Part shown: positions 8,001 to 10,806 of the stretch, piece by piece
How positions within the stretch are numbered: the stretch's first letter is position 1
Layout: every line of letters begins with the position of its first letter
Assembly: GCA_944359625.1 (NCBI GenBank)
Contig: CALVSW010000001.1
Span: 29,192 to 93,191 of the forward strand
DNA length: 64,000 bases
DNA from: an uncultured Bacilli bacterium
GTDB lineage: Bacteria; Bacillota_I; Bacilli_A; RF39; UBA660
Reading direction: 5' to 3'
Program-made: the position numbers and the translations under genes
The notes under the pieces: model-generated
The model's input: only the letters and a program-made list of their open reading frames with translations
The model's database searches: none
What the model was told of the DNA's origin: nothing

Positions 8001-10806
8001 TTTTAAAGCAATTGAAGAAAAATGGCAAAAATATTGGAATGAACATGAAACATTTAAAGCTATAAATGGTAGTAATAAAAAGCCTTATTATGTATTAGTT
8101 GAATTTCCATATCCATCTGGAGCTGGATTACACGTTGGTCATGTAAGAAGTTATACGGCATTAGATTCTTTAGCAAGATTAAAACGTATGCAAGGTTATA
8201 ACGTGTTATATCCAATGGGTTGGGATGCTTTTGGAGCTCCTGCTGAACAATATGCGATTAAAAATCATATTCATCCTAAGGAAGCTGTTAGAGAAAATAT
8301 CCATAATTTTAAAAGACAGATGCAATCACTTGGGTTTTCATTTGATTGGTCAAGAGAATTTTCAACAACTGATCCTGAATATTATAAATGGACTCAATGG
8401 CAATTTTTACAATTTTATAAACATAATATGGCTTATAAGGCAACAGTACCTGTAAACTGGTGTCCAAATTGTAAAACAGTTTTATCGAATGAAGATGCTG
8501 CTGGTGGGGTTTGTGAAAGATGTAAAACTAAGGTTGTTCAAAAGGAAAAATCTCAATGGATGTTACGTATGAGTGATTATGCTGAACAATTATTAGATGG
8601 TTTAAAAGATACGCATTTTGCTGATAAGGTAAAATTAGGCCAAATAAACTGGATAGGAAAATCAGTAGGAGCTGAAGTTGTTTTTAAAGTAGCAGATAGT
8701 AACTATTCTTTTACAGTATTTACAACAAGATGTGACACTTTATATGGTGCTACTTATTGTGTATTAGCACCTGAACATGAACTTGTAATGAAAATAACTA
8801 CTAAAGAACATGAAGCTGAAGTATTAAAATATAAAGAAGAATGTGCTTTAAAAAATGAGTTAGAAAGAACTGATTTAAATAAAGATAAAACCGGAGTATT
8901 CACTGGTTCTTATGCTATTAATCCTGTTAATAACAAAAAGATTCCTATTTATATAAGTGATTATGTTTTATTAAGTTATGGAACTGGCGCTATTATGGCT
9001 GTACCTGCACATGATGAAAGAGATTATGAATTTGCTAAAAAATTTAATATTCCAATTATTCAAGTTTTAGAGGAAGAAACTGGTACTCCTAAAGAAAACG
9101 AATTTAAGAAAAATTCTATTGTAGCTATTTTATATGATGAAAATAAAGATGAATATTTAACTATTAATTGGCATGATAAAGGTGGAAGATTATTTGTAGG
9201 TGGTTCAATAAAGGATAATGAAACAGCTTTAGATTGTGCTATTAGAGAGATAAAAGAAGAAACTGGTTATATTAATTTTGAATTAGTAAGTGAATTACCT
9301 AAAATAAATCATCATTATTATGCGTATAATAAAGATAAGTACTTTAATATTGAGTCTACGGGTTATTTATTTAAATTAAAAGATTATGCAAAAGAAGAAC
9401 AAAATTTAGATGATGATGAAGTTTTTGATGTTGAATGGGTTAATAAGAATGTTATTGAAAATGAAGTAACTGATGAGTTACATAAAAAAACTTTTATGTA
9501 TGCTTTAAAACCAGGCGCTATGGTTGGTGATGGTATTCATATTAATTCCGAATTCTTAAATGGTTTAAATAAAGAAGATGCTATTAATAAGATGATTGCC
9601 TACTTAGAAGAAAATAAATGTGGTTCTAAGAAAATAAATTATAAAATGCGTGATTGGATTTTCTCTCGTCAAAGATTCTGGGGTGAACCTATTCCTATGA
9701 TTAATTGTCCAAAATGTGGATGGGTTCCTATGAATGAAGAAGATTTACCTTTGTTATTACCAGATGTTGCTGAATATGAACCAACTGATAATGGGGAATC
9801 TCCACTTGCTAAAATTACTGATTGGGTAAATTGTAAGTGTCCTAAATGCGGTGGTGATGCTAAAAGAGAAACTGATACGATGCCAAACTGGGCAGGTTCT
9901 TCTTGGTATTTCTTAAGGTTTATGGATGCTCATAATGATAAAGAATTTGCTTCGATGGAAGCTATGAAATATTGGAATAAAGTTAATTGGTATAATGGGG
10001 GAATGGAACATACGGCAAGACATTTGTTGTATGCAAGATTCTGGGTTCAATTTTTATATAATATTGGTTTAGTTCCTAATAAAGAAATGATTGATGTTCG
10101 TGTATCTCATGGAATGGTTCTTGGTGATAATAACGAAAAAATGAGCAAATCTAAAGGAAATGTTATAAATCCTGATGATATTGTTAAAGAGTATGGTGCT
10201 GATGTTTTAAGAGTTTATGAAATGTTTATGGGAGATTATGAAATGGATGCTCCTTGGTCTACTTCTTCTTTAAGAGGTTGTAAACGTTTTATCGATCGTA
10301 TTATTCGTTTAGAAAATAAAGTAGTAGATGGCGATAATTATTCAAAATCTTTAGAAGTAATTATTAATAAAACAATAAAAAAAGTAACTGATGATATTCT
10401 TAATATGGGGTATAATACAGCAGTAGCAGCTTTGATGATATTATTAAATACTTATGAAGATCAAAAAGAAATTACGAAGAAAGATTATAATATAATTTTA
10501 ACTTTATTAAATCTATTTGCCCCTCATATTACAGAGGAAATAAATGAAAAACTTGGATATAAACCAATATGTGAAAGTCCATGGCCAACTTATGATGAAG
10601 ATAAAATAGAAGATAAAGAAAAAGAAATTGGCGTTCAAGTAAATGGAAAATTAAGAGCTTCGATTAAGGTTAATATCGATGATGATGAAGAAAAATTAAA
10701 GGAAAAAGCTTTAAAAGAAGATAATGTAAAAAAATATATCGATGGTAAAGAAGTAGTAAAAATTATTGCTATAAAAGGTCGTATTGTAAATATTGTTGTA
10801 AGATAG
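7984..10806 (+). CDS. leuS: Leucine--tRNA ligase with an inserted Nudix hydrolase domain
   Basis: [27 protein letters not shown] (HIGH), [16 protein letters not shown] (CP1 editing), [24 protein letters not shown] (KMSKS). 940 aa, with an extra segment of about 150 aa carrying a Nudix box. Confidence 0.95.
   Translation: [940 protein letters not shown]

Follow-up and report, generated by a model that had tools for sequence, protein, structure and literature searches.

The 64,000-nucleotide stretch of DNA analysed here (hereafter the window) comes from an uncultured Bacilli bacterium (GTDB lineage Bacillota_I; Bacilli_A; RF39; UBA660; assembly GCA_944359625.1, contig CALVSW010000001.1, positions 29,192 to 93,191 of the forward strand), and one of its open reading frames (ORFs), leuS, encodes a bacterial leucyl-tRNA synthetase (LeuRS) of 940 amino acids (aa) that carries a nested Nudix hydrolase domain. 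I propose that this protein is a bifunctional LeuRS whose CP1 editing domain houses, in one of its loops, an entire Nudix pyrophosphohydrolase (~150 aa) of the monomeric RppH/NudH/ApnA-hydrolase type, and that this Nudix site would hydrolyse dinucleoside polyphosphates of the Ap4A/Ap3A type (ApnA) or chemically equivalent Np(n)-ends. Synthetases make Ap4A and Ap3A from the aminoacyl-adenylate and ATP or ADP, and the making and removing of such by-products or alarmones would then sit on one polypeptide. The parts of this proposal differ in strength: that the insert is real and conserved, folds on its own, keeps invariant residues under purifying selection next to intact LeuRS motifs, and is an active hydrolase is very probable; the whole statement, in which an active RppH/ApnA-like Nudix domain in a working LeuRS acts on ApnA-type by-products, falls just short of probable; and the assignment of an ApnA-type substrate, taken alone, is tentative and on balance rather doubtful.

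The host protein scored 959.1 bits against the bacterial LeuRS model TIGR00396 (leuS_bact; cut-off 548.4), with the match split in two stretches, and a phmmer search of the PDB returned Thermus thermophilus LeuRS (Tth; 1H3N) at E=5.7e-215. In this alignment, query residues 3-369 corresponded to Tth 2-368 and the match resumed at query 516, Tth 380, a break that leaves ~146 extra residues in the query where Tth has 11. In insert-less Firmicute LeuRS (Enterococcus, Carnobacterium, Paenibacillus, Ruminococcus, and Blautia were compared), the loop 'VIE-GGKIE-EAAYTE-DGSHINS' stands where the window protein reads 'VLE-EETGTP...' followed by ~148 aa: an insert of ~150 aa has taken the place of ~10 loop residues that lie between two strands, the second being the DGxHINS strand, and both comparisons make the insertion site a variable surface loop of CP1. 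The insert was placed inside the editing domain because the CP1 profile PF13603, matched by aa 222-374 (profile positions 2-152 of 185, E=6e-63), breaks off at position 152. The sequence-only reading that preceded this analysis had claimed a Nudix hydrolase domain within LeuRS, which profile searches, structure prediction, fold search, and a survey of orthologues all bore out. It had put the domain just past the CP1 editing motif AVPAHDxRDxEFA, and indeed the PAHDERD motif with its conserved aspartates lies 17 residues upstream of the insertion; this can be refined to a position within CP1 and not behind it, given that PF13603 is interrupted. The peptide strings and nucleotide coordinates it had quoted were all found in place, with the editing-motif peptide at aa 339-362. 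The signatures of the synthetic and editing sites (HVGH, KMSKS, TTRCDT, and PAHDERD; Table 1), and likewise the GTG motif of LeuRS, were invariant, and from these intact motifs I infer that the host protein would still charge and proofread tRNA-Leu.

The insert equals a complete free-standing Nudix protein of ~155 aa, as its relatives of that kind aligned with it end to end. The Pfam profile PF00293 (NUDIX; cut-off 21.1 bits) matched aa 378-491 of the whole protein with 52.5 bits (E=6.6e-14) and the excised insert with 57.8 bits (E=1.5e-15), so the membership in the Nudix superfamily that had been read from the letters stands. The same is true of the perfect Nudix box: residues G407, E413, R421, E422, E425, E426, G428, and Y429 were invariant in an alignment of 40 sequences and at least 98% conserved across 72 species, while the rest of the domain diverges by 20-40% across these species. 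An AlphaFold2 (AF2) model of the insert, computed from an alignment of 20 insert sequences, reached a mean predicted local distance difference test score (pLDDT) of 90 and a predicted template-modelling score (pTM) of 0.84, and showed the alpha/beta/alpha sandwich fold in the expected strand-helix-strand order, with the REIKEE residues on a predicted helix at 415-427. The AF2 model of the full-length protein, which had been called for as a check, was moderate overall (pLDDT 73.9, pTM 0.61), and aa 370-510 were its best-predicted part (pLDDT 85-94). In a Foldseek search of the PDB, the insert model had 464 matches (E<=1e-3); among the 50 listed, every one was a Nudix protein. The models thus show the insert as a domain predicted to fold independently as a Nudix.

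Two further conserved elements lie outside the box. The X-loop, ~17 residues downstream of the Nudix box, is a determinant of substrate specificity, and ApnA hydrolases carry a conserved tyrosine there, a marker that goes back to Dunn et al. 1999 (as summarised in PMC5389931). In the insert, the HHYYAYNK region at this place (14-25 residues past the box) is likely to be such a determinant: H443, H444, Y445, Y446, A447, K450, and Y453 were invariant in the 40 sequences, and Y445, Y446, and Y448 fall at +16, +17, and +19 from the box, the first two being invariant, although the tyrosine marker is correlative and not diagnostic. The second element is the invariant pair D478-E479, which sits in the loop that precedes the last strand and is a candidate general base or metal ligand; F481 and W485 close to it are also invariant. 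When the insert profile was run against PDB sequences, E479 aligned with the glutamate of 'KIEWFD' in yeast Dcp2, which I take to be the general base E198 of that enzyme. The Nudix domain is thus predicted to be catalytically competent, as a Mg2+-dependent enzyme that would hydrolyse a nucleoside-polyphosphate-X compound.

Table 1. Features of the leuS gene and its nested Nudix domain (nucleotide positions in the window).
Feature	Residues	Position	Strand	Basis
leuS ORF	940 aa	7984..10806	+	TIGR00396, 959 bits; 1H3N, E=5.7e-215
HIGH signature HVGH, synthetic site, intact	50-53	8131..8142	+	invariant in 40-sequence alignment
CP1, N-terminal part, ends at insertion point	222-364	8647..9075	+	PF13603
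T-rich editing motif TTRCDT, intact	247-252	8722..8739	+	T247, T248, R249, D251, T252 invariant
Editing motif PAHDERD, intact	341-347	9004..9024	+	H343, D344, R346, D347 invariant
Nested Nudix domain	365-515	9076..9528	+	Pfam NUDIX; AF2; Foldseek; end-to-end alignment with free-standing relatives
Nudix box, perfect GX5EX7REUXEEXGU	407-429	9202..9270	+	motif and conservation
X-loop motif, HHYYAYNK region	443-454	9310..9345	+	14-25 residues past the Nudix box; conserved
D478-E479, loop before last strand	478-479	9415..9420	+	invariant in both alignments
CP1, C-terminal part, after insert	516-550	9529..9633	+	D516, G517, H519, N521, S522 invariant
KMSKS signature, intact	719-723	10138..10152	+	invariant

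The architecture is widespread. When a single representative genome of each GTDB species was scanned, loci encoding a relative of the insert were found in at least 392 species-representative genomes, and the insert is thereby shown to be real and conserved. The best 80 of these at least 392 loci (63-83% identity) were looked at more closely, and in all of them, save at contig ends, the Nudix box lay within one uninterrupted ORF of 935-957 aa. The source metagenome-assembled genomes (MAGs) stem from projects on the gut of rabbits, chickens, ruminants, mice, and humans; they were labelled as uncultured Bacilli, Tenericutes, or Erysipelotrichaceae, Candidatus Onthocola, Candidatus Faecenecus, Candidatus Faecimonas, or Clostridium sp. 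CAG:451, and in GTDB terms are probably Bacilli of the RFN20 type. In a collection of 5.8 billion proteins, PF00293 was present in 120 of the 120 best full-length matches, and the clusters at 90% identity held up to 442 member sequences each, with single members found on up to 39 contigs. An assembly chimera or mis-joined contig, the danger to which the sequence-only reading had pointed, can be dismissed with near certainty: hundreds of independent assemblies, from short and long reads alike, show the same in-frame architecture.

Some database proteins of 118-260 aa gave the impression of split LeuRS and Nudix genes. These were traced to error-prone long-read contigs on which all genes are fragmented, and split genes were rejected; on three such contigs (L001, L002, and L003), nearly every gene was broken into short ORFs by the frameshift-type errors of uncorrected long-read assemblies. 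The LeuRS pieces on these frameshift-ridden contigs still showed the same gene order.

The insert is also an old part of the gene. Its GC content (25.6%) matched that of the window and the genome (25%), the GC content at third codon positions (GC3) likewise agreed with gene and genome, and a search for direct or inverted repeats flanking the insert found none beyond AT-rich chance matches, so that a recent mobile-element insertion was rejected and the insertion is old. Mean column identity across the 72 species was 0.77 for the insert and 0.70-0.81 for the LeuRS regions, and among the 60 closest species pairs (dS ~0.9) the ratio of non-synonymous to synonymous substitution rates (dN/dS) came to 0.11 in the insert and to 0.05 and 0.07 in the two LeuRS segments that flank it. 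By these codon comparisons, the insert is shown to be under strong purifying selection.

Region-wise identities revealed that CP1 and the Nudix domain behave as a cassette. About 24 of 71 gut-Bacilli sequences (including those of CAG:451 and Candidatus Faecimonas) were only 34-54% identical to the window protein over the synthetic core (aa 1-221 and 551-780) and the anticodon-binding part, whereas the core is 80-96% identical within the window's own group; nevertheless, the same ~24 sequences were as close to the window as its own group over CP1 (71-83%), the Nudix domain (62-73%), and the CP1 tail (63-89%). This mosaic was seen on comparing window positions 8647..9633 with loci L023, L047, L076, L079, and others. 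Set against insert-less enzymes, the CP1 domain of the window protein was Bacilli-like (0.70-0.71 identity to Enterococcus and Carnobacterium, compared with 0.57-0.60 to Clostridia), whereas its core was nearer to Clostridia and Peptoniphilus (second catalytic part, 0.63-0.68 compared with 0.53-0.55). The LeuRS of CAG:451 was Bacilli-like throughout, and those of L256 and L173 were Clostridia- or Lachnospiraceae-like throughout, yet these carried a related Nudix domain at the same site. CP1 and Nudix are thus shown, as far as sequence identities can tell, to be inherited together on different LeuRS backbones.

A rough neighbour-joining (NJ) tree built from an insert-free LeuRS alignment intersperses carriers with non-carriers, both in Firmicutes and in the candidate phyla radiation (CPR, Patescibacteria), and together with the region-wise identities it disfavours a single origin followed by simple vertical descent. 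The simplest reading is that the Nudix domain, with or without CP1, would have moved between leuS genes by recombination in the conserved flanks (AVPAHDxRDxEFA and DGxxINS) and was retained each time. One MAG, Bacillales bacterium Tb.RUG.455, holds two different LeuRS-Nudix genes (L071 and L173), each on a contig of its own. The backbone of one groups near CPR sequences in the NJ tree, and that of the other is Lachnospiraceae-like; a mixed bin is the probable cause, although the two could be genuine paralogues.

The phenomenon reaches much further than the sequence-only reading could have seen. The wider family was collected by an exhaustive HMMER search of the insert against 1.84 billion cluster representatives, which gave 373 matches at E<=1e-3. 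Among the best 150 of these 373, 74 were flanked by LeuRS (34 of the top 50), 58 were short proteins (free-standing or fragments), and 18 were other multidomain proteins. In the LeuRS-flanked relatives, the Nudix part was 25-40% and the LeuRS body 40-55% identical to the window, and three insertion sites were found: site A, used in the window, after aa ~362; site B near aa ~213, immediately ahead of the CP1 hinge; and site C near aa 618-627, at the second Zn knuckle. As many as three Nudix domains occur in a single LeuRS: there are two at B and one at A in P0137 and P0139, one each at B and A in P0147, and one each at A and C in P0161, all confirmed by Pfam (further multi-site or CPR examples are P0152, P0162, P0181, P0232, L261-L264, and L271-L283, with an ORF of 1701 aa in L282). 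The CPR hosts in the genome scans were Saccharibacteria, Parcubacteria/Paceibacterota, and Kaiser-, Taylor-, Falkow-, Uhr-, Lipton-, and Moranii-bacteria, and further gut Bacilli were found as well. One of the gut Bacilli MAGs (MGBC143456, locus L247) has a LeuRS ORF of 1118 aa with two Nudix cores at aa ~442 and ~607, so extra copies occur outside the CPR too.

A cluster representative that seemed to be free-standing, P0151, was considered as the donor and rejected: 49 of its 52 related loci fall inside leuS ORFs of 844-1701 aa, and P0151 itself may be a gene fragment. A genuine free-standing member was found on the complete Saccharibacteria chromosome OZ246403.1 (L269, 3890..4372), where its neighbours were uninformative. 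A motif related to that of the X-loop, (Y/F)(Y/F)xxxKxxNR, occurs in the CPR and free-standing relatives. Family members with hosts other than LeuRS were nested in an IleRS-like protein that also has a His_Phos_1 domain, in ProRS, RNase PH, a 2H phosphoesterase, and an M17 leucyl aminopeptidase (together with two GNAT domains); there was also a protein of His_Phos_1 and three Nudix domains, and one LeuRS with a Ser_hydrolase domain besides the Nudix (proteins with such unusual hosts or partners are P0207, P0217, P0167, P0205, P0250, P0272, and P0235). This suggests that the nesting of small enzyme domains into housekeeping proteins is common in these lineages.

Two observations from the edges of the family may be recorded. 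A MAG labelled Candidatus Woesearchaeota archaeon (L292) contains a bacterial-type LeuRS-Nudix in an ORF of 964 aa, 43-46% identical to the LeuRS body of the window protein; the explanation is either a CPR contig placed in the wrong bin or a cross-domain transfer. In SR1 bacterium RAAC1_SR1_1 (L298) and a Gracilibacteria genome (L304), the ORFs that contain the Nudix matches are very short when translation table 11 is applied; SR1 and Gracilibacteria read UGA as a sense codon (code 25), with which short ORFs are expected.

The question of which Nudix this is was approached through subfamily models. Among the NCBIfam models, the best Nudix match of the insert was NudB (NF006961) with 29.9 bits (cut-off 103, E=3.2e-7), followed by TIGR02705 (YtkD/BsRppH) with 26.9 bits (cut-off 154.4), RppH NF001936 (PRK00714 models) with 25.2 bits (cut-off 118), and the MutT 8-oxo-dGTPase TIGR00586 with 21.8 bits (cut-off 97.9). 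All scores were far below the curated cut-offs, and the characterised subfamilies (RppH, YtkD, NudB, MutT, NudE, NudI, and others) were consequently rejected. Of eight short relatives, six had RppH as the best NCBIfam match and one as the second-best, at 20-38 bits; none of the RppH and YtkD cut-offs for the insert and its relatives, which span 116-154 bits, was reached. In structure comparisons with Foldseek, an Enterococcus faecalis Nudix protein of unknown function led the matches ahead of many Escherichia coli RppH entries, and the top neighbours further included the Aquifex Ap4A hydrolase (TM 0.71/0.82), Mycobacterium smegmatis MutT1, the M. tuberculosis diadenosine polyphosphatase Rv2985, AvrM14, and the Plasmodium falciparum Ap4A hydrolase; RppH and the Ap4A hydrolases were matched with a probability of 1.00. 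Taken together, the sequence and fold evidence points to the RppH/Dcp2/ApnA-hydrolase corner of the Nudix superfamily, with its monomeric enzymes. What members of this corner act on is a polyphosphate bridge, be it within a dinucleotide or at the 5' end of an RNA.

The window also holds a free-standing Nudix gene (53308..53712, +; 134 aa) with a strict box, GGKVESGEAPLEAAIRECHEELG, and a Pfam NUDIX match at E=6.8e-13. It is only 24% identical to the LeuRS insert and lies just upstream of tRNA-Gly(GCC) (53830..53904), so that Nudix hydrolases of at least two different subfamilies are encoded in the genome.

The proposal sharpens the idea of the sequence-only reading that the domain might clear Ap4A-type dinucleotides made by the synthetase, which was put forward as a possibility and stays one. 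Several features suggest an ApnA-type substrate: the nearest structural neighbours, the tyrosines in the X-loop, the acidity of the domain, and the marked bias of its family towards synthetase hosts. The net charge of the insert is -12 (mean -10.6 and range -18 to -4 across the 72 species), and this weakly favours a small Mg-nucleotide over RNA as the substrate. Several observations weigh against this assignment. Neither charge, nor fold, nor sequence scores separate the candidate substrates: the Foldseek E-values were bunched between 1e-8 and 1e-6 across Nudix subfamilies, and in the profile search against PDB sequences the catalytic domain of Dcp2, from yeast and human, came first (E=8.8e-9 to 5e-8), with a Clostridium perfringens Nudix, Chlamydia CT771, and AvrM14 ranking after it and the g5R decapping enzyme of African swine fever virus (ASFV) also matched, while the lupin Ap4A hydrolase scored only 1.5e-3 and NudB likewise ~1e-3. 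Moreover, LeuRS is only a moderate producer of Ap4A and LysRS is the classic strong one, but the LysRS-type gene of the window has no Nudix domain, and neither do its ThrRS and AlaRS genes; with the separate 134-aa Nudix gene, this argues that the insert is neither a generic feature of synthetases nor the only Nudix of the cell. Coupling to Ap4A also does not explain why the family is nested in RNase PH, the M17 peptidase, and the 2H phosphoesterase, which are not synthetases. Finally, although most CPR copies keep the strict box, a few divergent ones are degenerate (E to Q and R to M in P0204 and P0222, G to W in P0232).

It is rather unlikely, though still to be reckoned with, that the domain is a housekeeping Nudix unrelated to leucylation, for instance a NudB-like dihydroneopterin-triphosphate or dATP pyrophosphatase or an enzyme of pool sanitation, which settled in a CP1 loop that tolerates insertions. 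The carriers are uncultured lineages which I take to be small-genomed, and reduced genomes such as those of gut Bacilli and the CPR would nest small enzymes in essential genes: GNAT, His_Phos_1, and Ser_hydrolase domains are nested in LeuRS, the IleRS-like protein, and the M17 peptidase of related lineages, NCBIfam even has a model for an IleRS with a GNAT domain (NF040702), the insertion loop is variable, and NudB is the best NCBIfam match of the insert. However, that match stops at 30 bits where 103 are asked for, and the window genome has a separate free-standing Nudix for housekeeping. In addition, the association with LeuRS is specific (the 49 of 52 loci and 74 of 150 best cluster representatives mentioned above), and recurrent insertion at three sites, in up to three copies, with the module kept across LeuRS backbones, is not what a passenger without a link to its host would lead one to expect.

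Unlikely, too, but a serious contender is a role on RNA ends, in which the insert would be the organism's RppH/Dcp2-like pyrophosphohydrolase or decapping enzyme (for 5'-triphosphates, Np4N- or NAD-type caps) mounted on an RNA-binding host, and may act on the ends of tRNA or mRNA and not on free dinucleotides. The decapping enzymes Dcp2, AvrM14, and ASFV g5R were the best profile matches in the PDB, RppH dominated the Foldseek top 50, RppH and YtkD were among the top NCBIfam matches, and the other hosts of the family are mostly tRNA or RNA enzymes (IleRS-like, ProRS, RNase PH, and 2H phosphoesterase). RppH itself also hydrolyses ApnA, so its likeness does not separate this role from ApnA hydrolysis. 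The domain is strongly acidic, unlike a surface that binds RNA, the RppH and YtkD scores stayed at the 20-38 bits given above, the regulatory domain of Dcp2 is absent, and there is no obvious reason for the initiation of mRNA decay to ride on LeuRS.

A more radical idea, very improbable at present, is that the CP1-Nudix unit would be a new kind of proofreading in which the tRNA is repaired and not stripped of its amino acid: it would hydrolyse a pyrophosphate-type block at the acceptor end (a 3'-pyrophosphate, or a 5' Np4N- or NAD-type cap) and so make the tRNA chargeable again. CP1 captures the acceptor (CCA) end of tRNA, and tRNA 3'-pyrophosphorylation is installed by toxSAS toxins, which are RelA-SpoT homologues. 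The idea would fit a Nudix that travels with CP1 and is found on hosts that handle the tRNA 3' end (IleRS-like, ProRS, and RNase PH), as well as the histidine phosphatase with which it is sometimes paired and which could strip the remaining 3'-phosphate; a search of the full-text literature found no Nudix acting on toxin-modified tRNA ends. Less radically, the unit may be an anti-alarmone module that is swapped horizontally among leuS genes by recombination through the conserved flanks. Very improbable as well is a non-catalytic module, the Nudix fold serving as a ligand sensor or as a structural or tRNA-positioning element of CP1: non-enzymatic Nudix domains such as NrtR exist, the box is degenerate in some divergent CPR copies, and where a protein has several copies, one or more of them is usually non-canonical, but the catalytic residues are all conserved in the clade of the window despite 20-40% divergence and most CPR copies keep the strict box.

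As for the surroundings of leuS, a small predicted membrane protein of 133 aa without a Pfam match (7599..8000, +) is encoded directly upstream, its stop overlapping the start of leuS by 17 nucleotides, and a homologue of it lies directly upstream in 26 of the 80 LeuRS-Nudix loci. Past leuS (10815..13861, +) follow a desulfoferrodoxin, an RdgB/Ham1 non-canonical NTP pyrophosphatase, a PHP-domain protein, and a PnuC-type NMN transporter. A functional link of the insert to the RdgB/Ham1 NTPase two genes downstream was rejected, as this adjacency occurs in 0 of the 80 related loci and is a coincidence. Further away, two adjacent ORFs of 938 and 1095 aa (21203..24019 and 24297..27584, +) have almost identical N-termini (…DYSKIGLYPHNINGYEKV.EGYKNNS.VSVIRATGTG) and are thus taken as tandem paralogues, and two ORFs of ~420 aa (45326..46612 and 49290..50549, +) share an N-terminal motif (IRF.IEILRINTYNKNDKEY), which makes them a repeated gene family within 4 kb. 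A match to Rfam RF03531 (Clostridioides difficile sRNA n00280, 'included into helicase gene') at 30309..30403 (+; 67.9 bits, threshold 65.2) falls inside an ORF with a helicase-like N-terminus (28614..30710; AGAGSGKT) and probably reflects conservation of the coding sequence.

The sequence-only reading had taken such a LeuRS architecture to be undescribed, and this agrees with the literature: no description of a fusion of Nudix with LeuRS or any other aminoacyl-tRNA synthetase was found in full text outside the subscription journals, in which a prior report is possible, and the comprehensive Nudix-clan review of 2017 contains neither 'tRNA' nor 'synthetase' (PMC5389931). NCBIfam has no model or name for LeuRS-Nudix, and the database names encountered were 'class I tRNA ligase family protein' (NCBI, one member) and 'leucyl-tRNA synthetase' (JGI), next to automatic Pfam architectures only; the naming of these proteins is therefore a systematic annotation gap. 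Synthetases with guest domains, such as the IleRS with GNAT, and Nudix itself are already known, and it is the LeuRS-Nudix architecture that is apparently new.

This matters for several reasons. Few enzymes have been studied as thoroughly as the aminoacyl-tRNA synthetases, whose CP1 editing domain is targeted by drugs (benzoxaboroles), and here a second intact active site, absent from textbooks, sits in CP1 in hundreds of species of two very distant reduced-genome groups, the gut Bacilli and the CPR/Patescibacteria. If Ap4A clearance were true, the protein would be the first hard-wired link between the makers and the destroyers of these alarmones, and a natural system for the long-standing question whether dinucleoside polyphosphates made by synthetases are signals or waste; if RNA or tRNA ends were the substrate, it would define a novel class of RNA repair or decapping linked to synthetases. 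On both readings, insertion at three sites, up to three copies per protein, and spread as a cassette make LeuRS a remarkable example of how an essential gene evolves by modules.

Compared with known systems, the window protein is collinear over its full length with canonical bacterial LeuRS (T. thermophilus 1H3N and 2BYT, E. coli 4AQ7 and 4ARC) and shares with it the HIGH and KMSKS signatures, CP1 with the T-rich and AHDxRD motifs, the Zn knuckles, and the anticodon-binding and C-terminal domains. It differs in having an enzyme domain of 150 aa where the canonical enzyme has a CP1 loop of 10-20 residues (Tth 368-380), and accordingly counts 940 aa as against ~805-835 aa in the insert-less Firmicute LeuRS sampled. 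The insert resembles E. coli RppH (NudH/YgdP), Aquifex aq_158, and mycobacterial MutT1 and Rv2985 in being a monomeric Nudix of ~150 aa with a perfect box and an X-loop aromatic; it is only 13-24% identical to these RppH and ApnA hydrolases, however, acidic and not basic, and nested and not free-standing. The catalytic domain of Dcp2 is the best profile match among solved structures (E=8.8e-9) and is covered as a whole domain, but the likeness is remote: Dcp2 has an N-terminal regulatory domain (Box A), while the insert has none, is flanked directly by CP1, and belongs to a bacterial host. The free-standing CPR relatives (such as L269) align with the insert end to end and have the same box and X-loop motif, and differ from it in being genes of their own, of 150-180 aa, 27-40% identical, with uninformative neighbours. 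In NF040702 ('ileS_w_GNAT'), a class Ia synthetase likewise carries a small unrelated enzyme domain, with another synthetase as the host and another enzyme as the guest; by its existence, the model shows that architectures of this sort are already recognised by curators.

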